Shown here: one piece after another, positions 3,237-39,849 of the stretch
Layout: every line of letters begins with the position of its first letter
Numbering within the stretch: position 1 is the stretch's first letter
From: a bacterium UBA2214
Lineage (GTDB): Bacteria > Zhuqueibacterota > Zhuqueibacteria > Residuimicrobiales > Residuimicrobiaceae
Reading direction: 5' to 3'
DNA: 47,554 nucleotides
Assembly (NCBI GenBank): GCA_002327255.1
Contig: DCUM01000073.1
Location: forward strand, 1-47,554
Notes under the pieces: generated by a model
What the model was told of the DNA's origin: nothing
Seen by the model: the letters and a program-made list of their open reading frames with translations, nothing else
Database searches by the model: none
Made by a program: the position numbers and the translations under genes

Positions 3237-4142
3237 CTATCCCTGGTAACCAAATTCCCTTAAAAAGGTGTCATTTTTACGCCACTTTTCGCGCACCGCA
3301 ACCCACAGTTCGAGATAGACGGGTCTGCCCAGCAGCGCTTCGATTTCACGGCGCGACTCGATCCCGACGCGGCGCAGCATGGCGCCTGATTTGCCGATGA
3401 TGATTCCTTTTTGTGAAGTGCGTTCAACGACGATGCGCGCCTTGATCACATCCTTTCGGCCCGCGGCCGCCTCGCGGAATTCATCGATCACCACAGCGGT
3501 GGAGTAGGGTATCTCGTCGCCATAGAGTGAAAATATCTTTTCACGGATGATCTCGCTCACAAAAAAACGCTCCGGATGATCGGTCACTGCATCCGCATCG
3601 TACAGGGGCATGCCGGCCGGAAGATGGGGTACAAGGGTTTCAATGAGGAGCGCGCAGTTATCACCGTGCAGCGCTGAAATGGGGATTATTTCTGCAAAGG
3701 TATGGCGCGCCTGATAAGCCTGGATCAGCGGCAGCAGTTGCGGCCTGGCGATCAGATCCATCTTGTTGATGACCAGAAAAACCGGTTTGCGGGTGGCGAC
3801 GAGAAAATCAAGAATCTCCAAATCACGGCTGGCGGGCTTTGCAGATGCTTCCACCAGCAACAGCAGGACATCGGCTTCGCCGAACGCGCGCTGCGCCGCT
3901 TGCATCATGACTTCCTGCAACCGGTAAGCGGGCGTTATCAGCCCCGGGGTGTCGAGGAAAATGATCTGGTAATCATCGCCGCTGAGTACGCCCATGATGC
4001 GATGGCGGGTGGTCTGCGGCTTGGGCGTGGTGATCGACAGCTTAAACTGCAGCAGGCGGTTGATCAAGGTGGATTTGCCCACGTTGGGCTGACCGGCTAC
4101 TGCCACATAGCCGGCCCGGAAGCGTTGCGCTTTATGTTCCAT
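3237..4142 (-). CDS. era: GTPase Era
   Basis: 301 aa. It has G1 (GQPNVGKSTL), G3 (DTPG), G4 (NKMD) and a C-terminal KH domain (VERTSQKGIIIGKSGAMLRRVG). Confidence 0.95.
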   Translation of the reverse strand: MEHKAQRFRAGYVAVAGQPNVGKSTLINRLLQFKLSITTPKPQTTRHRIMGVLSGDDYQIIFLDTPGLITPAYRLQEVMMQAAQRAFGEADVLLLLVEASAKPASRDLEILDFLVATRKPVFLVINKMDLIARPQLLPLIQAYQARHTFAEIIPISALHGDNCALLIETLVPHLPAGMPLYDADAVTDHPERFFVSEIIREKIFSLYGDEIPYSTAVVIDEFREAAAGRKDVIKARIVVERTSQKGIIIGKSGAMLRRVGIESRREIEALLGRPVYLELWVAVREKWRKNDTFLREFGYQG

Positions 4143-4160
4143 GCGGTCGGTCGGTTCGCT

Positions 4161-4613
4161 TTACAGGTAAGCGTCCAGGGTATGCGATTCATAGAGACGC
4201 TGCACCAGCTGTTCTCCGCTCACCAGTTTGAGATTATGGAACTGACAGCCATTGCGCAGGCAGCCTTCAACGATACCTCCCTGCGGCAGATGCATCACGA
4301 ACATGGGCGCCGAACACACGTTACAGCGCTGCCCCTTATCGCTCAGCAACACTTCGCAGGCCGGGCAGCGAAATTCGACGATTTCGCCATCCGGGACGTC
4401 GATCTCCGAGACATTTTTAAAACTGCCATAAATGGGATCGAGGTGAATCTGACCGGATTGATTCCTGAATGTTACAATCACCGTGACCGAACTGTAGCCG
4501 TTAATCTTGTGCTCATGGTCCATGAGAGAATGACCGTGCGGGCAGCTGGCGTTCTGGATGCGCAGTGCTTTGCTGGGGATCTCGATCGCAACGATCTCTT
4601 TTTTCTTTGCCAT
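4161..4613 (-). CDS. Hypothetical zinc-ribbon protein
   Basis: 150 aa from the ATG at 4613, preceded by AGGAG. It has Cys/His pairs CPHGH, CPAC, CNVC and C..NGC. I recognise no family. It is packed between era and proS. Confidence 0.5.
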   Translation of the reverse strand: MAKKKEIVAIEIPSKALRIQNASCPHGHSLMDHEHKINGYSSVTVIVTFRNQSGQIHLDPIYGSFKNVSEIDVPDGEIVEFRCPACEVLLSDKGQRCNVCSAPMFVMHLPQGGIVEGCLRNGCQFHNLKLVSGEQLVQRLYESHTLDAYL

Positions 4614-4673
4614 AAACGACTCCTGAGGGGAACATAATGAGGGTACGCCGGAGGTCCGGCGCACCTGTTTTCA

Positions 4674-6104
4674 TCAATAGGATTTGGCCACGAGAACGCG
4701 TCCCTTGGAGGGAGCGCCGCAGACGATACAGGCGCCCTGCTCTTTGGTTTCATCCAGCGGGATAGTGCGGATGGTCGCTCTGGAGGTCTCCTGAAATTTG
4801 TTTTCGCACAATTCTGAACCGCACCAATGCACCCGGAAAAAGCCGCCGGGATTTTCGATGCGCGCGCTAAAATCATCATACGCATCCACGGTGAAGGTAT
4901 TGTCATCGCGGAGCGCTCTGGCGCGCTGCAAAAGATTATTCTGAATCTCTTCGAGCAGGGCCTCTATTTTCGCCAGCAGATTTTCCTGCGGCATGGCGAT
5001 CTTTTCGCCGGTGTCGCGGCGGACCACGACCACCTGTTGAGCGGCGACATCTTTGGGGCCGATCTCGATCCGTATCGGGATGCCGCGTTTCTCCCATTCA
5101 TTGAATTTGTATCCGGGACGGTACTGGTCGCGATCATCAATTTTGAAGGAAATTTTTCCCTGCCATGACGCGGTCAACGCCTGCGCGTGCTGGCGCATAC
5201 GCTCCATTTCCGCATCTTCTTTCCAGATCGGAATGAGGACCACCTTGAGTGGCGCCAGACGCGGCGGCAGCACCAGGCCATTGTCATCGGAATGGGTCAT
5301 GATCAGCGCCCCCACCAGACGCGTGGAAACACCCCAGCTGGTGGCATAGACATGCTGCAGTTTGCCCTGTTCATCCTGAAAGGTGACATCAAAGGCTTTG
5401 GAAAAATTTTGGCCGAGGTTATGGGACGTACCGGCCTGCAGCGCCTTGCGATCCTGCATCATGGCTTCGATGCAATAGGTACGCACGGCTCCGGCGAACT
5501 TTTCCTTTTCGCTCTTGAAGCCGACATAGACCGGTGCGGCGAGATACTCCTCGGCGAAACGGCGATAGACATCGAGTATTTTCAGGGTTTCCTCTTCAGC
5601 CTCTGCGGCGCTGGCATGGGCCGTGTGCCCCTCCTGCCACAAGAATTCGGTGGTGCGCAAAAAGAGCCGCGTTCGCATTTCCCAGCGCACGACATTGGCC
5701 CATTGGTTGATCAGGATGGGCAGATCGCGATAACTCTGAATCCAGTTTTTATAGGTGGACCAGATGATGGTCTCCGAGGTCGGGCGCACAAACAGCGCCT
5801 CTTCGAGCTTTTTGCCGCCGCCATGCGTGACGACCGCGCATTCGGGGGCAAATCCTTCGACATGTTCGGCTTCCTTGTGCATCAGGCTTTCCGGGATGAA
5901 GAGCGGAAAGTAGGCATTGACATGTCCGGTCTCCTTGAACATGCGGTCCAGCTGCCCCTGGATCATCTCCCAGATGGCGTAGCCATTCGGCTTGATGACC
6001 ATACACCCTTTGACCGCAGAGTGTTCAGCGAGATCCGCGGCGGCGATGACATCCAGATACCACTGCGAATAATCTTCTTTTCTCGGTGTAATTCCCTTTG
6101 CCAT
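4674..6104 (-). CDS. proS: Prolyl-tRNA synthetase, archaeal/eukaryote-like (no INS editing domain)
   Basis: The N-terminus ([19 protein letters not shown]...[21 protein letters not shown]) and overall length are typical of this ProRS type. The ORF is open to 6155, so the start (6104 or 6119) is uncertain. Confidence 0.9.
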
Positions 6105-6179
6105 ACCCAATCGATCCATTCCTTGTTTGCGAATTCCAATTGACAGAACGAACACACTGTCAGGTTTATTCAGTGATGA

Positions 6180-7061
6180 TTAATCGAAGACACGTCCTGC
6201 GCAGAAGAGATCACGCTGCTCGAGCTGTTGCAGGGTGGTAAAATAGCAATCGTGTTCCTCTTTGATCCCCTGCAGGCACACCAGTTCGCGGCGTCTGGTG
6301 GTGCTGCGGCCATCGCGCTGGATGACATCGACGAGCGCGCCCTGGGGGCATTTGAGGCATTTGTGCGGCTGCTGCGGCAAGCTGCGCGCGGTGGTCTTGG
6401 CCACCAATGCCTGGCTGTTGCTCCAGGTGGGCCTGCCCGACCGGTCGCCGAGCTCGACCGCCCCTATTTTGGGAAAGAGAATGCGGCCGCGATCAAAGGC
6501 GAGAATGCCGCGCGCATCGAGGCGGTCGCCCGGCGCCAGGGCGAAGCGCTCCTGCTGCTGCGGAGTGATGGCCGCGTAAAAAGCATCTTCGATGCTTTCG
6601 CGGCCGATGAATCCACGCCGGGCAATGAGCAAGTAACCGTCGAGGCGCAGTTGGCCGCCATGGGGATTCAACACCTTGAGAAAACGCGGCTTCACCGCGC
6701 CGATCGTGAAGGTGATGTCCCATTCCCGCCCCTGGTACGCCATGATCCATTCATCAAAGTCGTGGCACTGTTCCCTGAAGCGCGCATCTTCCGCGGGTGA
6801 CAGGCGGAGCGTTGGCTGCTGGTGGATTTTTTCATCCCGATAATGGGCGCAACCCGGGCAGAGCCGGCCCATGCGTGTGAAGCCGCGCGAACAGCGCTTG
6901 CCTTTATTGAACAGAGCGCAGGTGTAGCGGTACATCAGACATCCCTGAGGATAGCATTTTTTCTCGACCAGCACATGGAAAGCGGAGACGCGATGGGCAA
7001 ACCGGGCGTGCTGTGCATAGTGGCAGGTGAAGACATCGATCCTTTTATAAGGATTTTTCAT
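6180..7061 (-). CDS. Cysteine-rich hypothetical protein
   Basis: About 293 aa from the ATG at 7061 (GAGGA 6 nt upstream). It has an N-terminal Cys cluster (C..C..C..C, CPGCAHY) and a C-terminal CLKCPQG ... C ... C. No recognisable family. Confidence 0.5.
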   Translation of the reverse strand: MKNPYKRIDVFTCHYAQHARFAHRVSAFHVLVEKKCYPQGCLMYRYTCALFNKGKRCSRGFTRMGRLCPGCAHYRDEKIHQQPTLRLSPAEDARFREQCHDFDEWIMAYQGREWDITFTIGAVKPRFLKVLNPHGGQLRLDGYLLIARRGFIGRESIEDAFYAAITPQQQERFALAPGDRLDARGILAFDRGRILFPKIGAVELGDRSGRPTWSNSQALVAKTTARSLPQQPHKCLKCPQGALVDVIQRDGRSTTRRRELVCLQGIKEEHDCYFTTLQQLEQRDLFCAGRVFD

Positions 7062-7409
7062 GTCTATCCTCATAACATCTTCAAATAATTTAAAATATAA
7101 AGAGATTGCATGTGATAATCAAGCAAATTCTTTGCCCCTTTTTGCAGCACCATCAGGATTTATCTTTGCAAATAGAGTGAATTTTTCTAAATTAGATTCA
7201 TTGAACCTGAATGATTCAGCGCCGGGGACGCCGCAAAGCGCAGCGCCTATAAATCACCAAAATGGCTGCAAGCGCTGACGAGCATGTCGAGACCGGGAAA
7301 TCCGCTTTCGCATCATTACCTGACGGCACCAGACCCAACGCGGCGGCCTCTGCCCCCTTTGTGGTTTATGAAGGGATCCGGCTAAAACCAATGGACGAGG
7401 AAACGGCTT

Positions 7410-8987
7410 ATGAATTTCTCTACGCTCGATGTCGCCATTCTCTTCAGCTACCTCACCGGCGTGGCGCTTTTTGGCGCCTGGTTGGGCAAACGGCAAAAAG
7501 ACACCACCGACTATTTCCTCGGCGGCAGGGATTTGCCCTGGCTGGCCATCTGTTTTTCCGTCGTTGCCACCGAAACCAGCACGCTGACGTTTATCAGCAT
7601 CCCCGGACTGGCCTATCTGACCAATCTCAATTTTCTCCAACTCGCGGCGGGGTTCCTGATCGGCCGCACGATCATCGCCTTCGTGCTGCTGCCGCGCTAT
7701 TACCGCGGTGAAATTCAAACCGCCTATCACCTGCTCGGCAACCGCTTCGGCATTCGCATGCGCCGTTTTTCCTCCATCGTCTTCCAGATCACCCGGCTGC
7801 TCGCCGACGGCGTGCGCCTGTTCGCGACCGCCATTCCTCTGGCGATCATCACCGGCTGGAGCTACAGCGTCAGCATCATCATCATCGCCCTGGTGACGAT
7901 TCTATATACCTATATTGGCGGCATTCGCGCGGTCGTATGGCTGGATGTGATCCAATGGTGTGTCTATGTGGGCGGCGCGATACTGGCCCTCATCATCCTG
8001 CTGGACAAACTGCCGCAGGGATGGGGCAGCGTAGTGGCGGCGGCAGAACCCGGCGACAAATTCAATCTCATTCAACTCGGATTCGACAAATCATTCAAAG
8101 AATTTTTCAGCTTGAATTATACCCTGCTCTCGGGTTTAATCGGCGGCGCTTTTCTCTCCATGGCATCCCATGGCACCGATCAGCTCATCGTCCAGCGTCT
8201 GCTCGCCTGCCGCGATCTGCGCGCCAGCCAAAAAGCCCTTATCGGCAGCGGCTTCATGGTCATCGCACAATTCGTGCTCTTCCTGGTTCTCGGACTGGCG
8301 CTGTACGCCTATTACGGCGGCGCGGTCATGCGCTCCGACGAGGTTCTGCCCCGTTTCATCGTCGAAGGACTCCCCGTAGGCGTCAAAGGCATCATCATCG
8401 CCGGGGTCTTTGCGGCAGCCATGGGCAACCTCAGCGGTTCGCTCAACTCCCTCGCCTCTTCCAGCATGCTGGACCTCTACAAATCGCATTGGGGCAAAAA
8501 AAACAGCGCCAAAAAGGATCTGCTCATTTCGCGCGCCTTCACCTTCATCTGGGGGGTGATCTTTGTCATCAGCGCCACCATGTTCACGGCGACCGAAAAT
8601 CCTGTGGTCGAACTGGGACTGGCCATCGCCTCTTTCACCTACGGCGGGCTGCTCGGCACTTTTTTCCTCGGCCTCAGCAACAAGCGCGCCACCGAAGAGG
8701 AAGGGCTGCTGGCGATGTGGAGCGCCATCTTTTTCATGATCTGGATTATCGGGCAGAAAGGCGCGGGGCTGTACATACCCCTGGGGTTGGCGTTGCTGGC
8801 GGGCGTATGGCTGTTGCGGCGGCTGCAGAGTCTTCACACCCGGACCTTTACGCTGCTGTGGAGCTTTGCCATGGTTCTGCTCATCCTCGGCATCGACTCT
8901 CCCCCCATCGCCTGGCCCTGGTATGTTCTCATCGGCTGCTCGATCGGCTATCTCAATGGCACCCTGCTGTCGCTGTGGCGCCGTTAA
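7410..8987 (+). CDS. Sodium:solute symporter family (SSF) transporter
   Basis: 525-aa polytopic membrane protein. Its N-terminus (DYFLGGRDLPWLAICFSVVATETSTLTFISIPGLAY) is characteristic of SSF. Confidence 0.85.
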   Translation: MNFSTLDVAILFSYLTGVALFGAWLGKRQKDTTDYFLGGRDLPWLAICFSVVATETSTLTFISIPGLAYLTNLNFLQLAAGFLIGRTIIAFVLLPRYYRGEIQTAYHLLGNRFGIRMRRFSSIVFQITRLLADGVRLFATAIPLAIITGWSYSVSIIIIALVTILYTYIGGIRAVVWLDVIQWCVYVGGAILALIILLDKLPQGWGSVVAAAEPGDKFNLIQLGFDKSFKEFFSLNYTLLSGLIGGAFLSMASHGTDQLIVQRLLACRDLRASQKALIGSGFMVIAQFVLFLVLGLALYAYYGGAVMRSDEVLPRFIVEGLPVGVKGIIIAGVFAAAMGNLSGSLNSLASSSMLDLYKSHWGKKNSAKKDLLISRAFTFIWGVIFVISATMFTATENPVVELGLAIASFTYGGLLGTFFLGLSNKRATEEEGLLAMWSAIFFMIWIIGQKGAGLYIPLGLALLAGVWLLRRLQSLHTRTFTLLWSFAMVLLILGIDSPPIAWPWYVLIGCSIGYLNGTLLSLWRR

Positions 8988-8994
8988 TAAAAAA

Positions 8995-9023
8995 GGCCGT
9001 TGCTTCGCCCCGAAACAACGGCC
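8995..9023 (-). terminator. Putative intrinsic terminator between convergent genes, possibly bidirectional
   Basis: GGCCGTTG (8995-9002) pairs with CAACGGCC (9016-9023). An A-run lies on the plus side, which gives a T-run after the hairpin on the minus strand. Confidence 0.4.
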
Positions 9024-9216
9024 TCTCCCCTTGCAGGGCTATTTCTTCCCCTCGGTACACAGGGAATCGCAATAATTATACCACTTTTGAGAAAAAAGCG
9101 CTTAATATCTATTAAATAATCAATTATCTCGCCTTCCTTTCGGGCTCATCGCCCTTCAAATGTTGTATTTTTGCAACACCTGGAGAGCCTGTTTGTTGCA
9201 ATAAATGCAACACCTT

Positions 9217-9705
9217 TCAAACGGCCTCAAAACGCAGGGCGCGGGCGATATCGATGGGTGTGCGTGTGGGCACGTCGCGTCCTTCAAGTTTTATGCCTTT
9301 ATCATGCAGACGGCGGAATTGAGCGATATCCTCATCGTCGACGAAGATAAACGGTGCGATCTGGTTTTTACCGGCACGAAAATGCATGCCGCCAACATTA
9401 ACTTCCAGGATATCGACTCCCGCTTCCACCAGATCGACGATACTTTTGGGTGTATCCACCAGCAGCAGGATACGTTCTGTTTTTACCTGATCCGAAAGCA
9501 GGACAGCGATCGTTTCCTTCAAGGTGAGGACCGACGCCGAGATATTGCTGGTGACTGCCGACATATAGATGGTCTTTTGCCAGTCGGAGGTTGCCACTTC
9601 GTCACTGCACAGCATGATGCGTTGCGGTTTGAGGACATTTTGCCAGCCCACCACCACCTGACCATGAATGAGCCGGTCATCAATTCGCACTTGAACCAAA
9701 GGCAT
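9217..9705 (-). CDS. PTS EIIB component, mannose/sorbose class
   Basis: The N-terminus MPLVQVRIDDRLIHGQVVVGW is the EIIB(Man) phospho-His signature. I preferred the ATG at 9705 (GGGAGAA upstream). The ORF is open to a TTG at 9759. Confidence 0.8.
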   Translation of the reverse strand: MPLVQVRIDDRLIHGQVVVGWQNVLKPQRIMLCSDEVATSDWQKTIYMSAVTSNISASVLTLKETIAVLLSDQVKTERILLLVDTPKSIVDLVEAGVDILEVNVGGMHFRAGKNQIAPFIFVDDEDIAQFRRLHDKGIKLEGRDVPTRTPIDIARALRFEAV

Positions 9706-9755
9706 GTTAAGTTCTCCCATCCTGCGGATAAATCGGTTTTTGCCGCGCCGCGGTA

Positions 9756-10157
9756 TCAACAGGGTTTGCCCGGCGTCAACAGACAGACACCGCGTACCCC
9801 ATCCTGATAGACTTCTTCCGCCAGTTCGGGCATTGCGAGGCTGTCGCGTTTGCTGATGAACGAGAGCACCATGGCGAGATTCAGGCCGGATAACACCTTG
9901 ATGCCGGGATACTCCTTGGCGATGCCCACGGACACATTCCAGCAGCTGCCGCCGCGCAGACTGGCCATGATGAGAACGCCATCCTGTTCGGCGGCAGGTG
10001 CCGTCACCAGGGCGCGCAGACGCGAGGCGATCTCCGTAATGGACATATTGGTGACCGAAATGGCATACAAGCCTTCGTCGATACCCATGATGGTGCGCAC
10101 GGCTTCAATCATGGCGTCTCCGACGGGGCCATGGGTTAACAATATTCCCTGTTTCAT
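9756..10157 (-). CDS. PTS EIIA component, mannose class
   Basis: 133 aa. The N-terminus MKQGILLTHGPVGDAMIEA carries the active-site His in a THG context typical of EIIA(Man). Confidence 0.75.
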   Translation of the reverse strand: MKQGILLTHGPVGDAMIEAVRTIMGIDEGLYAISVTNMSITEIASRLRALVTAPAAEQDGVLIMASLRGGSCWNVSVGIAKEYPGIKVLSGLNLAMVLSFISKRDSLAMPELAEEVYQDGVRGVCLLTPGKPC

Positions 10158-12775: not shown

Positions 12776-13243
12776 TCAATGGGGCCAGTGATTGGCTGTA
12801 TATTGAAAATAACCTTCCGATGCGCTGTTTTCAAAATCGAGCACCACCAGCGCGATGAGATCCTGCATATCCTCAATATCCATGGAGGGCAGCTTCAGAT
12901 TTACAGCGCGCTCGATGATGCTTTCCATGTCCATATCGCTTAAAAGTTCCATCTCGCGCAAGTGAAACAGGTAACCATAGGCCTGCGGAGAGATCGCCAT
13001 ACGCTCATATTCATTGAGTTGGCGCCAGATCGGACGGGGCAAATCTGATATCTGATTCTGAATCAACCGGTCGATGGTTTCCCCGTGGTTGAACAGCCAG
13101 GACATGGCATGGGTGATCTCTTCCTCGGAAAACCCGCGTTCGAGCAGCAGATCCATAATAAATTGTAAGTCAATATTTTCAAGAGAATTATCGCGAATCT
13201 CCTTCATGGCGTATGCAATAATCTCTAACAGACGTCGGTCCAT
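12776..13243 (-). CDS. smg: Smg (DUF494) family protein
   Basis: 155 aa. Its acidic N-terminal half (LLERGFSEEEITHAMSWL) resembles Smg/DUF494. Confidence 0.65.
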   Translation of the reverse strand: MDRRLLEIIAYAMKEIRDNSLENIDLQFIMDLLLERGFSEEEITHAMSWLFNHGETIDRLIQNQISDLPRPIWRQLNEYERMAISPQAYGYLFHLREMELLSDMDMESIIERAVNLKLPSMDIEDMQDLIALVVLDFENSASEGYFQYTANHWPH

Positions 13244-13386
13244 GCTATCTCCATATGGGCGGTGGTGAATCGCACCGTTCTCTCATTTCAATATACAAAT
13301 AAAAATTCCAAAAGCAAGTGCTTTCGGTCACGCGATTGGAAACCGGATGGAATAGTGCTGGAACGCACATCCCGGCCGCATATCCA

Positions 13387-16300
13387 TCAGGCGTTTTTGC
13401 CGCAGCACTGCTTGTATTTTTTGCCGCTGCCGCACGGGCACGGATCGTTGCGACCGACGCGAGCCCCTCTGACCACCGTCGCTGTCCGGGCCGGAGCCGC
13501 TGCAACCGCTGCCGGGCTCTCGGCGTGGCTGCGTGGTGCACCCTGCTTGAACGTTTCCACCTGAGAATGCGTGGTCATAAAATTCTTGGGCTCGATGCGC
13601 CGCATCTGGCGCTCCTCCAATTCGCCACCGACGTCAAAATACTTGAAGAGGGTGGCGACCACGTCACGATTGATGCGATCGATCATCTTGACAAACAGAT
13701 TATAGGCTTCACTTTTGTACTCCAGCAGGGGATCCTTCTGGCCGTAACCCCGCAAGCCGATACCCTCGCGCACCTCATCGGTCGCATTGAGGTGCTGCCG
13801 CCAGTTTTCATCGATTTTTTCCAGGACAAAATAGCGCTCATAGCGCATCGCGCGTTCGCTGCCGAGTTCTTCAATGCGTTTTTGATAAATTTGCCGCGCC
13901 CAGCGATTCAGTTGCGTCATGATTTCATTGGGATCGTAGACCTGGCCGCTGTCGTCGCTGAGACGCGGCGCCTGGCGGAACACCAGACGGCACTCGGACT
14001 CGATGCGGCGCACCTTGCTGCTGTCAAGCTCGGTTTCTCCCTCCATGACGCCGCTGATCATGGCATACACCGTGTCCTCGATCATCATCAGTACCGAATC
14101 GCGCACAATCTCTCCACTCAGCGTCTCCTGGTGGAAGCGTTCTTCGCGTTCGGCATAGGTTTCGTACCATTTCAGCGCCCAGGCGACGATATCCTCGGCA
14201 AACGAGGCGATTTCTGCGCCATCCCGGGTATCGGGCATGGCCTTTGCCGGACGCTGCATGAGGACAAATCCAAGGCGGGATGCCAGATCCGCCTGCTTCT
14301 GCTCGATGGGCGACGGGCCTGCGGCGACGCTCCGGACCATGGCCGTGAGGGCTGCCGCCATGAATTCCTCGATGGAGGCCCGATGCAGCATGGCCTCGAG
14401 ATAGGCATCCCGCTTTTCGTCCATCTGCGTTCGGTATTGAATCGAAAGTTGACGTGAGAGGCGTTCTTCCAGTGGCTCTTCCGATGCCGCCGTCACATCG
14501 GGCAGCGTCACATCCCCAAAGAGGCGATGCAGGAACTTTATCTGGCGCTCATCGAGCCGGTCGGTTCTGCCGCTTCCCAAATCGATGAGGAGATAGCGCA
14601 CCACCACATCGATGAAATTCGCGAGGGAAAAGAATCCCACGATACGATGGCGCATGGCTGAGGCATCGAGATGCGGCAGGCGCTCCCGAATCCAGCTCTG
14701 TATCATCTGCAGCAACTTTTCACGACGAATGGTGCGAATTTCATGGATACCGACGGGGGGCTTGCCGGAGAAGACGCGATCCAGACCGTTGAGAAACTCC
14801 TCGCCTTTCCAGGCGTGCGGTGAAATCTTCTCCGGCAGATACGCTTCCATGAGGCCGCGCAGGTAAACCATCGCCATCTCTTCGGTTTCCAGTTTCAGGA
14901 AGAGGAGGAGATCGAGTCCTTCGCGGTTCCTTGCCACGTGCTCCTGGTAATGCCGGGCGGCCCATTGTACCAGGCGCTGCTCGAGCTCTGCGGCATCGGC
15001 CGGGATGTCCTTTGCCGCCAGCCATTGCGGCGACGTCCCATAGATTCGTTCAAGCTCGTCGCGAATGCCGGTGAGATTCCATTTGGCGGTATCCCGGGTA
15101 CCGGCGCTGTGCAAGCGGATTTTCAGGTGCACCAGTTCTTCCAGCGTCTGCGCAAAGGGCGTATAGCCGAGCAGGCGATGCCGCAGCTGCATCTGACGTT
15201 GCAGCCGTTCCGCCTCAATTTGTTCACCGATCCATTCGATCAGGAGTTCTTTGATCTCTGCAAATTTTAAAGGCTCGAGTTCCTGAACCGTAAAGCCGGT
15301 TTCGTTGTGGAAAAAGGCCTCCAGATTGGCCAGCAGTCCGGCCAGGTCCCATTCCGTGCGTTCGTCTTCTTCGTTAAAATAGCGTTTGGCTTTCGATTCG
15401 ACAAGATCTTCCGGACCGGCGAATCCCAGCAGATTTTGCCGCCGTTTGTAGATGATTTTGCGCTGTTCATTGAGGACGTTGTCGTAATCCAGCAGGTGCT
15501 TGCGAATCTCAAAGTTGCGTTCTTCCACTTTCTTCTGGGCTCTTTCGATGGAACGCGTGATGAGCGGATGTTCAATGCGCTCGTTCTCTTCCATGGGCCC
15601 GAGGCGGCTCATCATGGTGGTGATCCGGTCGGAACCGAACAGGCGCATCAGATCATCTTCCAGCGAGAGGTAGAAGCGCGACGAGCCGGGGTCGCCTTGA
15701 CGGCCGGAGCGGCCGCGCAGCTGGCGGTCGATACGGCGCGCCTCATGTTTTTCGGAACCGATGATGTGCAGTCCGCCGCGCCTGGCCACCTCATGATGAA
15801 GCTTGATGTCCGTGCCGCGGCCTGCCATGTTGGTGGCGATGGTGATGCTGCCGGGCAGACCCGCTTTGGTGACGATCTCCGCTTCCTGGCGGTGGAATTT
15901 GGCGTTCAAAACGGTATGGAAGCGGCCGGATTCCAATTCATGGGTGACATCGCCTTTCTTGAGCCAGTTGGCAATGGGAACGCCGCGCTGCGTCAGCATA
16001 TCGCTGAGCAGCTGGGAGACTTCCACGGAGATGGTGCCGACCAGCACGGAACGTCCCTGTTCATGCATGGAGATGGCTTCTTCGACGATGGCATTGTATT
16101 TCTCTTTCCGGGTGCGGTAAATGACATCGTTTTCATCGTTGCGAATGACCGGTTTATTGGTCGGTATGACCATGACCTCGAGTTTGTAGGTGCTGAAAAA
16201 TTCCTGGGCTTCGGTTTCCGCGGTTCCGGTCATACCCGCCAATTTATCGTAGAGCCTGAAAAAATTCTGGATGGTGATCGTAGCCAGCGTCTGCGACTCG

Positions 16301-19300
16301 GCCTGCACCTCCACGCCTTCCTTGGCTTCGAGGGCTTCGTGCAAACCATCGCTGTAACGGCGGCCCGGCATGAGCCGGCCGGTGAACTGGTCCACAATCA
16401 TGACCGCATTGGCGCCCTTTTTCCCGGAGACGCGTCCGCGCAAGTCGGCATCATCCAGGGCTTTGACGACATAGTCGACGTCGCGATGATAGAGGGTGTA
16501 GGCGCGCAGCAGCTGCGAAATATTCTGCACCCGTTCCTCGATGGCGGTGTACTCTTTCCAGAGGTTGTCGCGCTGCTCTTCAAGGAGGCGGCGCGGTTTG
16601 CGTTCAATATGAATCCGCAGCCAATGTTCGATCTCCTCGCTGGTCAGGGATGTTTTGGCGGAATGGGCTTTAAAAATCAGTTCATTCATTTCGCGGTCAT
16701 CGAGCTGAAAATGTTTGCCGCGCAAATGGGCTTTATCTTTGGCGAGCAGACTCTCGAACTCGGCCTGGGTCGTCGCTTTTTTCGTCGCCAGTAACAGCAC
16801 CTCCTCGCGAAACCGGTGCAGTTCATCGCGATAGGAAAAGAATGGCAGCCCTTCGAGCAGGAGAGCGCGCGCCGTCTTTTTCAGTGCAACCGGGAGGCCG
16901 TGATCGTCGAGAACAAAAAGGAGCTCCTGTTCCAGATCGGGACTGTTGGTGAGATGCAGCAGGCGCTCCCAGATTTGCTGACGCGAAGCGGAAGCGCCGC
17001 GCAGGAGGTTGAGCCCGTTGTCCGATAAACCGAGGAACGCGGTGCTCTCCGGCCTCAATTCATGTGCCGGGGCATCAAACTCAAAGTAGCGATGGAGATG
17101 GCGGCTTTTCTCCACAGCGCTCATATCCGGATTTTCAAACCATTCAAAGATAACCTGCATGGTGCGATGCAGGCGTTCGACCTCCTCAAACTGGCGTGAG
17201 AGACTCGCTACCGGTTGTTCCTGAGGAAATGCGGTGGCGAGAAAATGATCCAGGCTCAGGCGCAACCGGACGGGCGCCCCCCCCAAAGCGGCGGCGTTCT
17301 GCTGTTTCCATTCGCTTATTTTTTCCGCCACTGCAGCAAAGGGAAGGCCCAGCAGCCGATCCAGTTCCGCAGCCGCCAACCCGACATATCGTCCTTGCGG
17401 ATCGAGGTTAAAGATGCGTCCCGCCTGATTTTTTTCGCGACGGAGTTCCTCATCGAGTTGCTGGATGAGAGCGTGTGTTTGCGATGCGTGACCGGAGAGG
17501 ATGGCGGCCGCCTCCGTGGTGAATTGGAAGCGGCGTGTCCCCGGATCGATGCGCCACCAGGTATCGCCTGTGTCGAGCTTGTGGAGTTCATCGACATCGC
17601 GCTCGATCTCTTCAATCGCCATGACGCGTTCGGCGTAATCAAAGCCGCTTTGATTGAGGGTGCGGTCCAGCAGATTCTGGATACCGCGATCGCGTTCTTC
17701 GACCAGGCTGCGGTCCGGAAGGATGTATAAATCCGGGTTGCCGCCCAGCATGGCGATGCGTCCCTTTTCAGCGATGTGACGCGGTATGGCGCCTTTGCCG
17801 GTGAACTCGAAATACTCCTGGCGGCGTTCATCCAGCGTATCTGTGCTCCCGGTTGCCAGCAGTGCCGTCATCTTGCTGATAGCGGGCAGCAGGGAGAGAT
17901 CGCCGTCGAAATGGCGGATCAGGATCGCGGTCACGCCGTCGGGGCGCAGGGCCGTGGGGGCGTTGCTGCTCTTGTCAAGTTCGAACCACAAGCCGGCCCA
18001 TTCGCGGCGAAGCTCGGCTTCGACGCGATTCGCCGCATCGAAGGCATCCATATCCTGCAGCAAATCGGCGTAATTTTGCACCAGTTCCGTATAGAGGGGA
18101 GCGGCATTGCCCGCGAGCAGAAAACGCTTCGCCTCTTCGGTGAGGCCAACCACCATGCGCTCCAGTTTTCTGGAATTAAGGTAATAGTGCCGCCAGGCGG
18201 CGGATTTATCGATTTTTTGCTGCTGGGCGCTTTCCGATACCTGTTGGGCCAGTTGAGCGATACGGGCAGCCAGTGCAGCGGCGGCATCGATCAGCGCCTC
18301 ATCGGCTATTTTCCCGGGTGCGGCCAGCACAACCTGTCCAGCCGGGGTGATGCCGTTGCAGAGACCGCTGACGGGATCCTGGGTATAGAAACGCTGGACA
18401 TTTTTCTGCTCCGCCACAGCGCCGAGGCGTTCATCGAGGCGGTCCAGTAGCTCGATTTTGGCGACGAGGTCCTGATCGCGTCCGCCCGAAAGAAAAATGC
18501 GGCCTTTTTCCGTGATATCAACCACATGCGATTTCTCGTCGATGGTATAATAGAGTTCACCATCGACGCTGCCCATCTCCTTGTTGATTTCGTGTTCACT
18601 TTGGATGCCTTCGATCAATTTTTTGACCCAAAACTCGGAGGTGAGTAATTCGAGGAGCTGGGCATTTTTGGGATCACCGCGGTGTACGCGCAGGAGCGCC
18701 ATGCCGGCAGCCTCTTCGTCCTGCTCCAGCAACTCCTTGCCTTTACGCAGCAGTTCCGCGATCAAATCTTTCTGGCGGCGATAGAGATTGGCGACGATGG
18801 GTTTGAGTTCGTAATAAATGTTGCGCGGTGCGCCCACGGAACCGGAGATGATCAAAGGCGTACGGGACTCATCGATGAGCACACTGTCGACTTCATCAAC
18901 GATGGCATAATTGAGCTTGCGCTGCGCGACGCTCCAGACATCGGTGGCCATGTTGTCGCGCAGATAATCGAAACCGAACTCATTATTGGTGCCATAGGTA
19001 ATATCGGCGTTATAGGCCTGACGGCGTTCTTCCGGCGTCATTTCGCCGTGCAGCGCCGCGGCGGTCAAGCCAAGAAAATCAAATATTTTTCCCATCCATT
19101 CACAGTCGCGTTGGGCGAGATAATCGTTGACGGTGACCAGATGCGCACCTTTGCCGGTCAGTGCATTGAGATAAAGCGGCATGGTGGCGACCAGCGTTTT
19201 GCCTTCGCCCGTTGCCATCTCGGCGATTTTGCCCTGATGCAGGACGACGGCGCCGAGAATCTGGACATCATACGGCACCATATTCCATACGATTTCCTGG

Positions 19301-19572
19301 CCGCGGACCAGCCATTTGCGGCCGATGAGGCGACGGCAGGTCTCCTTGACGGCAGCATACGCCTCCGGCAAAAGGTCATCGACCGTCGCGTCTTCACGGG
19401 AAAGCCGATACCTGAATTCCTGGGTCTTGGCTTTCAGTTCGTCATCGCTGAGTGATGCAAACGCCTCGGCATGGCGATTGACTTCCGCGACAACAGGCCA
19501 CATCCGCTTGACTTCGCGTTCGGTGCTGGTGCCGCCCATAAATTTGGAAAAAAAGGTAGAAATTGAACTCAT
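13387..19572 (-). CDS. secA: Preprotein translocase ATPase SecA, giant 2,061-aa form
   Basis: All canonical motifs occur in order: Walker [90 protein letters not shown] and the C-terminal zinc finger [14 protein letters not shown]. The start is an ATG at 19572. Confidence 0.9.
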
Positions 19573-21159: not shown

Positions 21160-22857
21160 TCAGCGTATATCCTTGAGCCGTAATTGTATCATTTTGCGCC
21201 CCATGTATTCATTCTCTTCCAGGAGGTAAGTCAAATCCAGGCCGCGCTCGGTCTGCTGCGTCCGCGGCAGATGAGCGCCCATGCCGAAGCCTATGGCTTC
21301 AAAAACGGCATTCCCTTCGCGCACCTTGAATTTGAGATGATTGCCGCCGACGATGACCGGATTGCCCACGACCTGCAAATTGCGCGACATGAAGACCGGG
21401 CGCATGTTTTGCGGGCCATAGGGGGCGAACATGCGCAACAATTTGATAAACGTCTCATCGATCTCCTGCAGATGCAGTTCCGCCTCGATGGCCAATTTCG
21501 GGATCAGCTGTTCACCATCGAGACGCGCGGCAGCCACCGCCTCGAATCTTTCACAGAAAGCGGGGATATTATTTTCCTCGATGGACAAACCCGCGGCATA
21601 CTTGTGGCCGCCAAATCCGATGAGAAGGTCTTCGCAACTTTTCAGGGCATCATGCAGATCGAACCCCTCGATGCTGCGCGCTGATCCTTTGCCCACGCCA
21701 TTTTCGATGGAGATCAGGACCGTTGGGCGGTAAAATCGCTCGACAACGCGCGAAGCCACGATACCGATCACGCCCGAATGCCATCCGCGTTGATATAAAA
21801 TCAATGCCCTGGTGCGTTCGTCCTGGAATTTCTGTTCGGCCAGTACCAGGGCCTGGCGGAAAGTCTCTTCGTCGACATTTTTGCGGTGACGGTTTTCCTG
21901 TTCGAGGACATTGGCGATCTCCAGTGCTTCAGCGGGGTCGGATGTACTGAGCAGTTTCACGGCGCGCTCGGCGTCTCCCATGCGCCCCACCGCATTGATG
22001 CGTGGTGCCAGGATGAAGACAATATGCCCGGTGCTGATATCCTTGCCGGAGAGTCCGGCGACCTGAAACAACGCCTTGATGCCGAGGTTTTCGCTCTCGT
22101 TGAGGCGATCGAGTCCCGCCTTGACAAAGATACGATTTTCATCGACCAGCGGCACGATGTCAGCCGCCGTGCCGATGGCGACCAGTTCGAGATAATTTTC
22201 GAGAATGGAGAGGTCATATTTCATGCGCAGCAGCAAGCCCTGGCAGAGCTTGTAGGTAACGCCCACACCGGCCAGCTCGCGGAAAGGATAGGGGCAGTCG
22301 TTGCGTTTGGGATCCAGGACAGCCAGTGCATTGGGCAGTGTTGGCCCGGGTTCGTGGTGATCGCTGACCAGCACATCCATGCCCAGACTGCGCGCCAGCT
22401 CGATCTCCGCGTGTCCGGTGATACCACAATCGACGGTGATGATGAGGCCGGTTCCCCGCTCTTTGGCCGCCTCGATGCCCTGGGGCGAGAGGCCGTATCC
22501 CTCCAGTTGGCGATCGGGGATATAGTAGTCGACATTGGCACCGAGTTCCCTGAGGATGAGATAGAGAAAGGAGACGGAGGTGATGCCATCGACATCATAA
22601 TCACCATAGATGAGAATTTTTTCATCGCTCAAGACGGCGCGGCGCAGGCGCTCCACGGCCTGATGCATATCCCGCATGATGAAAGGATCATAGAGAAGAT
22701 CGAGCGAAGGCCGGAAAAATCGTCTTGCGGCGTCAGCATCTGTAATCCCCCTGCGCAGCAACATCTTGGTGATGATTTCGGGAATTCGCAGGCTTTGTGA
22801 TAGTGAATTGACTTCCTGGGATGAAAATTCATCGAGAAGATCCCATCGCAGTTGCAT
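21160..22857 (-). CDS. recJ: Single-stranded-DNA-specific exonuclease RecJ
   Basis: It has the DHH motifs (ILIYGDYDVDGITS; VTVDCG; VSDHH) and a DHHA1 motif (GGHKYAAG). I moved the start to the ATG at 22857 because the longer ORF (to 22983) runs into rnpB. Confidence 0.9.
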   Translation of the reverse strand: MQLRWDLLDEFSSQEVNSLSQSLRIPEIITKMLLRRGITDADAARRFFRPSLDLLYDPFIMRDMHQAVERLRRAVLSDEKILIYGDYDVDGITSVSFLYLILRELGANVDYYIPDRQLEGYGLSPQGIEAAKERGTGLIITVDCGITGHAEIELARSLGMDVLVSDHHEPGPTLPNALAVLDPKRNDCPYPFRELAGVGVTYKLCQGLLLRMKYDLSILENYLELVAIGTAADIVPLVDENRIFVKAGLDRLNESENLGIKALFQVAGLSGKDISTGHIVFILAPRINAVGRMGDAERAVKLLSTSDPAEALEIANVLEQENRHRKNVDEETFRQALVLAEQKFQDERTRALILYQRGWHSGVIGIVASRVVERFYRPTVLISIENGVGKGSARSIEGFDLHDALKSCEDLLIGFGGHKYAAGLSIEENNIPAFCERFEAVAAARLDGEQLIPKLAIEAELHLQEIDETFIKLLRMFAPYGPQNMRPVFMSRNLQVVGNPVIVGGNHLKFKVREGNAVFEAIGFGMGAHLPRTQQTERGLDLTYLLEENEYMGRKMIQLRLKDIR

Positions 22858-22940
22858 CGATTGGCTACTCCGACGATATGGGCAAATTGCGCCGTTGATA
22901 TGGATAAATACATCATTTATTACTGCAGGAAATAATGAAT

Positions 22941-23316
22941 CTCCAAAGCAGGCCTGTAAGCCGAATTCTGTCATCCCGCACATGCGGGAGAGATGATCAT
23001 CTATCTAGGATGCGAGTTGCCCCGCACCTCCAGCGACCTACCCGAGGGTCGAACGAGACGAGCAGCCTCTTCCCTCCTATTTGGTCTTGCTCCGGGTGGG
23101 GTTTACCAGGCTCCTGCTGTCACCAGCAGGACGGTGAGCTCTTACCTCACCCTTTCACCTTAACCCCGGAAGCATCCGGGGATGTCTGCTTTCTGTGGCA
23201 CTTTCCCCGCCTCACGACGGGTCCGCGTTACGGACCACCCTGCTCTGTGGAGTTCGGACTTTCCTCATGCTGGTCTGCCAGGCAGTCAGCACGCGATCAT
23301 CCAGCCTGCTTTGGAG
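22941..23316 (-). ncRNA. rnpB: RNase P RNA, bacterial type A
   Basis: The minus strand reads ...GAGGAAAGTCCGAAC...ACAGAGCAGGGTGGTCCGTAACG...GTTAAGGTGAAAGGGTGAGGTAAGAGCTCACC...GGTAAACCCCACCCGGAGCAAGACCAAATAGG...ACAGAATTCGGCTTACAGG. This can be aligned block by block to E. coli M1 RNA. P1 is formed by CCAAAGCAGGC (5' end) with GCCTGCTTTGG (3' end). The ends are accurate to about +/-5 nt. Confidence 0.9.
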
Positions 23317-33606: not shown

Positions 33607-34668
33607 TCAAAAAGCGAATGAGCCTGAAATCCGATGGGAATTATCCAGTTTATCCGCCACAAACGCATAGTCCACTGCAAAACCGAGAAAGCGCAGGCCG
33701 GCGCCGGCGGTCATATGATCCTGGTGGTAACCGCCGCGCAAACTGATGGCGTTGAAAAAATCGAGTTCAGCGCCGGCAAAGTTACCCTCTGTGTTCCAAA
33801 AGGCTCTGTCATAGGCGATGGTAATGCGGGTACGCCAGAACGCCAGCAGGTGTGAGGCGGCGACGCCCGTCACCAGGCCGCGCTCTATTTCATCTTTGTG
33901 CCGGGAATCGGTGTTCCAGCTCAATTGTGTCCTGGACAGATCGCGGATGACGGCGCCGGCGCCGAACCAGGTGCGCGGATCGGGCTCATCTTCCCAGTTC
34001 GGCATGACGCGTACCAGCACGCCGGCATCGATGCCCTGACCACTTCCGGCATACTGATCCAGTTTCTGGTGTATATACTTTCCGGTGAAGCCAACGGATA
34101 TTTCGGTTGGCAGGTAGACATCCGAGAAACCGCCGGCCATTTCCAGATCCAGGATGATGCTGCGCCGGAAAGAGAGCAGAATGGCGTCCTCCTTGTCGGA
34201 GAAATAGCCGAGGGCTTCTCCGCTGGAGCGGTGCTGACCGAGGATGAGGCGGTCGTAGCGGCTGCCCTCGAGCGCGCCATAGCGCGGGATGTCATCGACG
34301 CCGAGACGAATCCAGTTGAGGCTGATACTGGTGGAATAGTCAAAGGCGAGATGCGCACTCATGCTGTTATACTGTGCCAATCCGGAGAAGAGGGGTACAT
34401 GTTCGAGCTGCACAGCGATGCGGCTGACGCCCGCCCAACCGGCCGGATTCCAATAGGTTGCGCTGGCATCATTGGCAAGCGCCACATAAGCGCCGCCCAT
34501 GGCCATGGGACGCGCGCCAACACCGATGCGCAGGAAATCGGCGGCGTAATCACCCGGTGTCGCCGGGGGGGCCGCCATGAGAAGCAGAAGAAACACTGCT
34601 GCAACTGCCTTGATTGTTATCATCACAAACCTCATCTCCATTCCGTTTGCCCTTTCGAAATCGGTCAT
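33607..34668 (-). CDS. porV: T9SS outer-membrane shuttle protein, PorV/PorQ family
   Basis: A signal peptide is followed by the family motif DFLRIGVGARPMAMGGAYVALANDASATYWNPAG. The composition is beta-barrel-like and the protein ends in F. Its ATGA overlap with porU suggests translational coupling. Confidence 0.8.
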   Translation of the reverse strand: MTDFERANGMEMRFVMITIKAVAAVFLLLLMAAPPATPGDYAADFLRIGVGARPMAMGGAYVALANDASATYWNPAGWAGVSRIAVQLEHVPLFSGLAQYNSMSAHLAFDYSTSISLNWIRLGVDDIPRYGALEGSRYDRLILGQHRSSGEALGYFSDKEDAILLSFRRSIILDLEMAGGFSDVYLPTEISVGFTGKYIHQKLDQYAGSGQGIDAGVLVRVMPNWEDEPDPRTWFGAGAVIRDLSRTQLSWNTDSRHKDEIERGLVTGVAASHLLAFWRTRITIAYDRAFWNTEGNFAGAELDFFNAISLRGGYHQDHMTAGAGLRFLGFAVDYAFVADKLDNSHRISGSFAF

Positions 34669-39521: not shown

Positions 39522-39588
39522 GCCGTCTCCTTTCATTCGCCTCTGATCGTCCCGTCGTTCACAGCTGCTGTATTTCACGAAACACCCA

Positions 39589-39849
39589 TTATTTTTCAGT
39601 TGGTCGTTGTATGTCATTCAATAAATCCATGCTCAAATCCGCCAGCCGCCTGGCATAATAGCTGACCCGCTCGAGAAGATGAACTTCTTCGGGCTGGAGA
39701 CGCGACGCGACTTCATCCTGATAGATACTGAGATAGCCCAGCAAGCCCTGAACCGTGGATCGCAGTTCGTGTCCAAGACGGCGCTGTTGTGCCGCGCGTG
39801 AAATTTCATGCTCCGCCGCATGATTATTTTCTTGCCTCACTTCCGTCAC
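39589..39849 (-). CDS. DHp (HisKA)-only mini-protein with H-box and no ATPase domain
   Basis: 86 aa from the GTG at 39849 (GGAG 9 nt upstream, 5 nt after the preceding stop). The H-box is RRLGHELRSTVQGLLGYLSIY. The frame has no ATG start. Confidence 0.4.
   Translation of the reverse strand: MTEVRQENNHAAEHEISRAAQQRRLGHELRSTVQGLLGYLSIYQDEVASRLQPEEVHLLERVSYYARRLADLSMDLLNDIQRPTEK

Follow-up and report, generated by a model that had tools for sequence, protein, structure and literature searches.

A SecA of more than twice canonical length in a KSB1 bacterium, with clamp modules amplified in tandem

The secA locus and its domain order

Here, we analyse an unusually long secA gene in a stretch of 47,554 nucleotides (contig DCUM01000073.1 of assembly GCA_002327255.1, bacterium UBA2214), referred to below as the window. 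The gene lies at 13387..19572 on the minus strand and forms one uninterrupted open reading frame (ORF) with an ATG start, encoding 2,061 amino acids (aa) followed by a stop. It is a genuine SecA in which all landmarks are kept, and profile comparisons and structure models indicate that its additional residues are tandem copies of modules of SecA itself, located in the PPXD and in the helical wing region (HWD). The initial annotation of this DNA had recognised the giant SecA and the internal position of its extra residues, but missed the tandem-copy nature of the inserts.

Motif scanning, Pfam and NCBIfam agree with that annotation on a single SecA reading frame whose motor landmarks are intact and in order. 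Seven landmark motifs (aa 119-132, 225-235, 1247-1258, 1279-1296, 1360-1378, 1939-1953 and 2045-2058) follow the canonical order, the N-terminus lines up with the N-termini of homologues in the alignment, and the Pfam profiles SecA_DEAD, SecA_PP_bind, P-loop_SecA, SecA_SW and SEC-C also occur in canonical order, including the three (SecA_DEAD, SecA_PP_bind and SecA_SW) that the initial annotation had proposed as a check. The Pfam scan revealed no other domain, intein or transposase in the giant SecA. The SecA_DEAD match (E 2.6e-119) is accompanied by Walker A GEGKT at aa 122-126 and Walker B DEVD at aa 226-229, and P-loop_SecA (E 8.3e-69) starts from aa 1141, with the conserved NBD2 (IRA2) motifs at aa 1247-1258 and 1279-1296. 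SecA_PP_bind was matched at aa 980-1082 (E 1.5e-20) over profile positions 40-110 only, and the N-terminal part of the PPXD was recognised through profile-profile (HH) comparison with modules of the normal-size KSB1 SecA family and of E. coli SecA. SecA_SW spans aa 1815-1977 (E 6.6e-59), with scaffold, wing and two-helix finger (IRA1) all present and their motifs at aa 1360-1378 and 1939-1953, and SEC-C lies at aa 2041-2059 (E 1.6e-9), where the zinc-finger peptides PDB 1sx0 and 1tm6 also match.

The protein passed the NCBIfam models PRK12904 (961.2 bits, cut-off 814) and TIGR00963 (913.1 bits, cut-off 800). The top NCBIfam model was PRK12901, representing the FCB-type SecA, with 1,065.6 bits collected in four stretches, and its cut-off of 1,493 was not reached because the inserts break the alignment. 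All SecA2 models remained under their cut-offs, namely TIGR03714 (646 against 930), TIGR04221 (525 against 725), TIGR04397 (746 against 1,085) and NF012136 (551 against 1,100). Matches to SecA structures in the PDB reached down to E 4e-203, and B. subtilis SecA (PDB 1tf2) aligns to the giant SecA in three pieces, at aa 17-286, 1017-1427 and 1880-2059. The extra residues are therefore internal and belong to the PPXD and to the wing region, in line with the first proposal, which is refined in one point: the PPXD block proved to be two insertions around a conserved island.

The borders of the inserts were set by aligning the giant family (44 members) with a profile built from 21 KSB1 SecAs of normal size, and all coordinates of the domain map refer to the minus strand. 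The map begins with NBD1 (aa 14-250, 18823..19533), defined by Pfam SecA_DEAD and with a ratio of nonsynonymous to synonymous substitution rates (dN/dS) of 0.05, and continues with a PPXD helical segment (aa 251-335, 18568..18822), which was placed by the normal-family profile alignment and contains four helices in the AlphaFold2 model. This segment is common to the ~1,055-aa KSB1 SecAs and is not found in B. subtilis SecA, for which the phmmer alignment ends at ~aa 286. The first PPXD hairpin+helix module, U1 (aa 336-363, 18484..18567), stands at the ancestral position and was delimited by HH comparison and by the strands and helix of the AlphaFold2 model. Insert 1a (aa 364-610, 17743..18483), seen as a gap in the normal-family alignment, comprises modules U2-U4 and the hairpin and helix of U5, with hairpins at ~aa 396, 464, 530 and 588, and its beta-hairpin+helix repeats were mostly modelled at a predicted local distance difference test (pLDDT) of 80-95.

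Insert 1a is followed by the conserved ancestral island (aa 611-650, 17623..17742), which continues the single module of normal-size SecAs and shows 79% column identity in the family over aa 601-650, a 50-aa bin covering most of the island. Its start aligns to NEPEMFILPDLGER of the SecA of Ca. Zhuqueibacter pondensis (L027), where EKGREYLSP directly precedes NEPEMFILPDLGER, and the remaining island has no counterpart there. Insert 1b (aa 651-997, 16582..17622; dN/dS 0.18), delimited by AlphaFold2 and alignment, holds U6-U9 with their linking helices, has hairpins at ~aa 673, 721, 830 and 886, and runs into a ~50-aa helix at aa 978-1027. The next part (aa 998-1399, 15376..16581; dN/dS 0.02) was mapped by Pfam and the 1tf2 alignment and includes the C-terminal half of the PPXD, the return to NBD1, NBD2 and the first scaffold helix. 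Two small insertions specific to the giant form were also observed in this part, one of ~13 aa in the canonical PPXD half (aa ~1040-1052, window 16414-16452) and one of 19 aa in NBD2 (aa ~1200-1218, window 15916-15972), the latter strongly conserved in the giant family.

Insert 2 (aa 1400-1849, 14026..15375) adds five wing units of ~90 aa each, as judged from register, HH, AlphaFold2 and Foldseek. The sixth wing unit, in the canonical position, follows together with the scaffold helix and the two-helix finger (aa 1850-1985, 13618..14025; SecA_SW and HH), and the protein ends in a basic tail with a net charge of +8 that carries the SEC-C zinc-binding motif (aa 1986-2061, 13390..13617). On the plus strand, four antisense ORFs of 224-495 aa were noted within secA (13318-14457, 15307-16794, 17776-18450 and 18682-19455); these are most probably not genes but shadow ORFs, reflecting the high GC content of the coding sequence.

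Origin of the inserted residues

Internal repeats were detected by a window-by-window HH scan of the giant family, in which pairs of windows were counted at a probability of at least 80%. Such pairs made up 16/190 within insert 1 and 22/120 for insert 2 taken together with the wing domain, with 0/915 among pairs that span different regions, and no internal repeats were found in the normal-size SecA family by the equivalent scan. Self-comparison of the giant SecA by BLASTP gave no off-diagonal matches, because at their age the repeats can no longer be seen by comparing sequence with sequence. Similarly, iterative HMMER started from U1 recovered U1 and U5 alone, and the other modules require profile-profile comparison or structure.

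The modules of insert 1 are irregular, ranging from 48 to 109 aa. Against the module of the normal-size family, U1 scored an HH probability of 99.2%, U5 95%, and U3 and U6 69-74%, and negative controls against the normal-family profiles remained at or below 1.1% overall and at or below 0.5% for the wing-domain profile. U1 additionally matched E. coli SecA 257-282 at 79%. Within the array, the modules are connected by HH links between U1 and U2 (95%), U2 and U3 (94%), U2 and U4 (94%), U4 and U5 (95%), and U1 and U5 (93%), as well as between U3 and U8 (91%), U6/7 and U8/9 (89%), and U1 and U6 (84-87%).

Insert 2 is more regular than insert 1, with a period of 90 aa and six units, counting the canonical one, that start at ~aa 1400, 1490, 1580, 1670, 1760 and 1850 and line up by eye on a W-x-L-x-G...F...W...Y pattern. 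Units 1-3 match the independent wing-domain profile of the normal-size family at 91-96% and unit 6 does so at 97.6%, whereas units 4 and 5 are tied in by HH links of 96-97% to units 2 and 3; the best inter-unit probability was 98.3%. The sixth unit also matches E. coli 737-789 at 94.8%, and a hidden Markov model (HMM) built from the wing units finds the E. coli wing domain (aa 700-783) at 2e-7.

Structure models are consistent with this arrangement. For aa 225-1110, AlphaFold2 returned a mean pLDDT of 81.6 and a predicted template modelling score (pTM) of 0.66, with 441 residues at a pLDDT of at least 90, and in the model a module of beta-hairpin, short helix and long helix recurs nine times in a row (hairpins at ~aa 342, 396, 464, 530, 588, 673, 721, 830 and 886), with a helix of 50 residues after the last module. 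The only poorly modelled part of this piece is the canonical C-terminal half of the PPXD, because it stood there outside its context. The second model, aa 1380-2000, reached a pLDDT of 88.3 and a pTM of 0.82 and is all-helical with six-unit periodicity. A Foldseek search of this model against the PDB matched SecA alone (E 1.7e-4, probability 1.0), and the same search with the 886-residue insert-1 model gave nothing significant (best E 0.05), a global comparison that is uninformative for so long an array.

Searches for the inserts outside the giant SecAs point in the same direction. An hmmsearch with a 14-sequence insert-1 profile against 1.84 billion representative proteins returned seven proteins, one full-length giant SecA and six giant-SecA fragments, and thus no homologue of insert 1 outside giant SecAs. 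A word-indexed protein search with insert 2 alone recovered one 639-aa fragment and 0/43 of the known full-length relatives, a result that we do not read as absence because the index appears not to cover distal regions of long proteins. Among ordinary SecAs of greater length, six proteins of 1,172-1,233 aa that were listed individually show no more than a single prong module and a single wing unit each by the unit HMMs. Of all the sequences below 2,000 aa in that scan, a few gave two matches to a unit HMM, possibly split ones; in the class of 1,160-1,300 aa these were 1/14 proteins for the HWD and 2/14 for the prong. Taken together, the profile links and the models show that the ~1,000 additional residues arose from modules of SecA itself, copied in tandem, and are not foreign material. 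On this evidence, the PPXD holds nine hairpin+helix modules, about eight of them extra, and the wing region six wing domains, five of them extra.

Distribution, genomic context and rival explanations

In a search of 5.8 billion protein clusters, the window protein and 43 more clusters were obtained at 100% query coverage, with lengths of 2,049-2,111 aa. These ~44 giant clusters are 53-80% identical, originate from NCBI, JGI, ENA and Logan assemblies, and are separated by an abrupt fall in length from Rhodothermales-type SecAs of ~1,130-1,230 aa. A scan of GTDB species genomes yielded ten full-length and two truncated giant copies, in metagenome-assembled genomes (MAGs) labelled as candidate division KSB1 or, in some cases, as 'uncultured Cytophagia'. 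The uncultured KSB1/Zhuqueibacterota lineage lies within the FCB superphylum, in agreement with the initial assignment of the DNA to an FCB-group MAG. Several giant-SecA MAGs (L002, L005, L006 and L008) have been deposited as 'uncultured Cytophagia bacterium', and their SecA and synteny place them in KSB1/Zhuqueibacterota.

For placement within the phylum we used the supplementary tables of the Zhuqueibacterota paper (PMC11683472), through which two giant-bearing MAGs were classifiable. Both of them (RBG_16_48_16 and Zod_Metabat.28) belong to the GTDB order UBA2214 (Residuimicrobiales), in two different families, and normal-size SecAs occur in the orders DRLW01 (Zhuqueibacterales; Z. pondensis and S140_5) and AABM5-25-91 (Thermofontimicrobiales; JZ4_201803_bins_154 and BS750m-G10). 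A neighbour-joining tree over 833 shared columns unites the giant SecAs in a single clade, which is set off by a long stem. The amplification of both modules is ancient and took place once, on the stem of this clade.

A SecA with amplified clamp modules appears to be new. The expectation that no such protein had been described was borne out in the full text of the literature, where open-access papers and preprints yielded no prior description of such a giant SecA, an earlier mention elsewhere being possible. Sec is mentioned nowhere in the Zhuqueibacterota paper (PMC11683472). The possibility raised in the initial annotation, that a SecA of this length might prove common and already described in the lineage, was thus not borne out. 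In public databases the proteins carry names such as 'hypothetical protein', 'SEC-C domain-containing protein' and 'DEAD/DEAH box helicase, partial', and together with the failed cut-off of the FCB SecA model such names mean that surveys of KSB1 genomes may count secA as absent or aberrant.

Within the window, the neighbours of the gene are hprK, xerC/D and DUF494 on one side and nusB, ilvE, recJ and the RNase P RNA on the other. The order ilvE-nusB-secA-DUF494-...-xerC is common to all giant loci and to the secA loci of KSB1 genomes with a SecA of ~1,030-1,065 aa, and the giant secA is therefore the positional ortholog of the ordinary housekeeping secA. Directly downstream of secA lies the DUF494 (Smg-like) gene (window 12776-13243, minus strand), and the pairing of the two, which is kept in the giant loci and in most normal-size KSB1 loci, suggests that DUF494 is a conserved operon partner of secA. 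No secY2 or asp-type accessory gene was found among the neighbours of the giant secA. Further along, a bacterial class A RNase P RNA (window 22941-23312, minus strand; full-length match, 306.9 bits, E 1.2e-99) is situated just downstream of recJ (21160-22983).

The inserts bear signs of constraint. In comparison with the closest relative (L001, 80% identity), dN/dS was 0.18 in insert 1, 0.14 in insert 2 and 0.02-0.05 in the motor, values that are approximate because dS is saturated. Within the family, insert 2 measures 444-454 aa and insert 1 636-681 aa, dozens of positions in the inserts are invariant in the family alignment, and both inserts are consistently acidic, with mean net charges of -28 and -20, next to a neutral PPXD-C/NBD2 segment. 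Judged from these sequence comparisons, both inserts are maintained under purifying selection. The ATPase motor, the stem of the PPXD, the scaffold, the two-helix finger and the zinc-finger tail are complete throughout and highly conserved.

Against this background, an assembly or gene-calling artefact or a chimera, whether through collapsed repeats, gene fusion, a foreign domain, an intein or a mobile element, is effectively refuted. Frameshift errors do occur in such data, as one MAG contig (L059, 55,429 bp) carries the giant secA split into the overlapping ORFs 3731-8020 (1,429 aa) and 8001-9920 (639 aa), with the adjoining ilvE cut to 151 aa and a gene context as in the other giant loci; this split is probably an assembly frameshift error rather than a pseudogene. 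Yet the identical architecture and length recur in ~44 clusters from independent assemblies, and GC content is even along the gene (0.52-0.61). Tandem DNA repeats are absent from secA, and its direct repeats are limited to four chance-level families of 20-28 nucleotides, most copies of which are 73-77% identical to the reference, so that the collapsed-repeat mis-assembly considered in the initial annotation is excluded. Its other concern, that the inserts might match independent genes, was not substantiated either, as insert 1 occurs in giant SecAs alone among the 1.84 billion proteins and the inserts are homologous to SecA's own modules. The Pfam scan and the insert-1 hmmsearch together rule out insertion of an intein, a mobile element or a foreign domain. 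It is also rather improbable that the giant protein is an accessory, substrate-dedicated paralogue of the SecA2 kind, with a normal secA elsewhere in the genome. Accessory SecAs are found in other phyla, the MAGs are 85-96% complete, and the giant-bearing genomes were scanned in part, all of which leaves some room for this explanation. However, the giant gene occupies the syntenic slot of the only secA found in the sister orders, amid nusB, ilvE, recJ, DUF494, xerC and hprK and with no secY2 or asp neighbour, 4/4 SecA2 models fell under their cut-offs while two SecA equivalogs exceeded theirs, and the motor is 80-90% identical within the giant family. In addition, a second match to motor peptides shared with the normal KSB1 SecA was found in 0/12 giant-bearing assemblies; one of the six exact 8-residue patterns of that single scan, DCEWMGKI, is also present in normal KSB1 SecAs, and the scan is weak evidence for a single copy.

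A further possibility, which we regard as unlikely although it deserves more weight than the paralogue, is that the arrays are tolerated and largely functionless duplications that arose by replication slippage or unequal crossover at two surface sites, were fixed as one lineage split off on its stem, and were retained only because their loss would destabilise the fold. Both expansion sites are indeed peripheral in SecA structures, no intermediate copy numbers were seen, which fits a single historical accident, and the inserts change faster than the motor, with dN/dS of 0.14-0.35 against 0.02-0.08 and family identities of 27-45% against 80-90%. Such passengers would nevertheless hardly have kept their length within ~2% in a clade whose members are down to 53% identical, or have retained many invariant residues, a constant acidic charge and a dN/dS far under 1. 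They would also not readily account for ~3 kb of extra coding sequence being kept in genomes of 4-7 Mb, or for the joint expansion of both partner domains of the wide-open clamp. We therefore favour the reading of the protein as the housekeeping SecA of the KSB1 lineage, doubled in size when two of its peripheral modules were amplified in tandem long ago, and this is probably correct. Several points weigh against it. The saturation of dS (1.1-1.7) makes the dN/dS values approximate, the inserts evolve ~4-7x faster than the motor, which is compatible with weak function, and U2, U7, U9 and wing units 4 and 5 reach the canonical modules via internal HH chains and AlphaFold2 secondary structure. 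Moreover, a second, divergent secA was probed weakly, by one pattern scan, and the arrays were modelled as two separate pieces, so that the models do not place them relative to each other.

Clamp geometry and comparison with known systems

SecA is among the most intensively studied molecular machines, and current models turn on the swing of the PPXD between the wing domain, with the clamp wide open, and NBD2, with the clamp closed. The counterpart of U1 in E. coli, residues 257-282, overlaps 'prong 1' (E. coli aa 250-275), which is one of two PBD elements bound to NBD2 when the clamp is closed (bioRxiv 10.1101/2021.01.18.427065), and the wing domain is the docking site of the PBD in the wide-open state (bioRxiv 10.1101/2021.01.18.427065; PMC11610655). 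The amplified modules are therefore the partners by which both end points of the PPXD swing are set.

Given its sequence, the giant SecA would still serve as the SecYEG-coupled translocation ATPase, and by orthology it would also be essential. The two arrays would extend both clamp walls to form long platforms around the preprotein, and their likeliest role, which we propose tentatively, would be that of built-in docking surfaces for clients or partners, acting in a holdase-like manner, or of a longer pair of clamp arms. A more specific and decidedly speculative version of this proposal is that the PPXD array and the wing array are co-evolved partners, docked along each other in the wide-open state and moving apart on closure, which together would form a pair of long acidic arms, a built-in holdase or tweezer by which unfolded preproteins are caught and held. 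If true, such arms could replace a dedicated export chaperone or allow very large secreted proteins to be handled, and they would constitute a new mechanical elaboration of the Sec motor. As a separate observation, the window also encodes a 1,650-aa ORF (34665-39617, minus strand) with a Peptidase_C25 domain (gingipain-like, E 4e-89), a propeptide, CARDB and a C-terminal FlgD_ig-like domain, which has the look of a very large protease, either secreted or on the surface, and exemplifies the big clients that the Sec system of this organism has to export.

The significance of the giant SecA lies in the multiplication of two specific elements, the prong 1 hairpin module and the wing domain, which were apparently kept under selection across a bacterial order. 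It thereby offers a natural experiment on clamp geometry, including the load on the swinging domain, the role of the bulb periphery and the wing, and the holding of clients within the motor.

Giant proteins with SecA domains have been described from Omnitrophota and Actinobacteriota, where proteins of >30,000 aa combine SecA DEAD and preprotein-binding domains with many transmembrane regions; the Omnitrophota SecA_DEAD giants lack both the scaffold and the wing domain and occur alongside a normal SecA (bioRxiv 10.1101/2023.11.21.568195). Kinship to these giants was considered and rejected, as the KSB1 protein has scaffold, wing and SEC-C, contains no foreign domains and sits in the housekeeping slot. 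The accessory SecA2 proteins of mycobacteria, Listeria, Bacillus and streptococci are likewise SecA-fold ATPases; their length is below that of SecA1, and in many cases part of the wing domain or of the C-tail is missing.

The closest comparison is with the normal-size SecA of other KSB1 bacteria (~1,030-1,065 aa; Ca. Zhuqueibacter pondensis, L027), which occupies the same slot as the giant and is ~55% identical to it over 968 aligned columns. The two share the FCB-type PPXD helical segment, the long PPXD helix, the motor, the two-helix finger and the zinc-finger tail, but the normal-size protein has one hairpin module and one wing domain, to which the giant adds aa 364-610, 651-997 and 1400-1849. 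Conversely, the normal-size KSB1 SecA carries a ~57-aa insertion in NBD1 and a 28-aa Cys-rich insertion in NBD2, and the giant is without both. In L027 these lie at aa ~55-112 (NBD1) and aa ~672-699 (CALVNVKPGEESCPHLEEYNCYDNVPC, NBD2), and the Cys-rich CALVNVKPGEESCPHLEEYNCYDNVPC segment looks like a small metal-binding knuckle.

The FCB-type long SecA (PRK12901, ~1,118 aa; Rhodothermus marinus 1,136 aa) also has a PPXD larger than that of E. coli and B. subtilis, and its motor is 46-57% identical to that of the giant SecA, while it is ~900 residues shorter. Canonical SecA (E. coli 901 aa, B. subtilis 841 aa; PDB 2fsf, 1tf2 and 3din) has the same domain order, motifs, finger and zinc finger, and the last wing unit of the giant corresponds to the E. 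coli wing domain and scaffold at ~aa 700-790. The giant SecA thus differs from the canonical protein in being more than twice as long, with its clamp-wall modules present in nine and six copies as opposed to one each.

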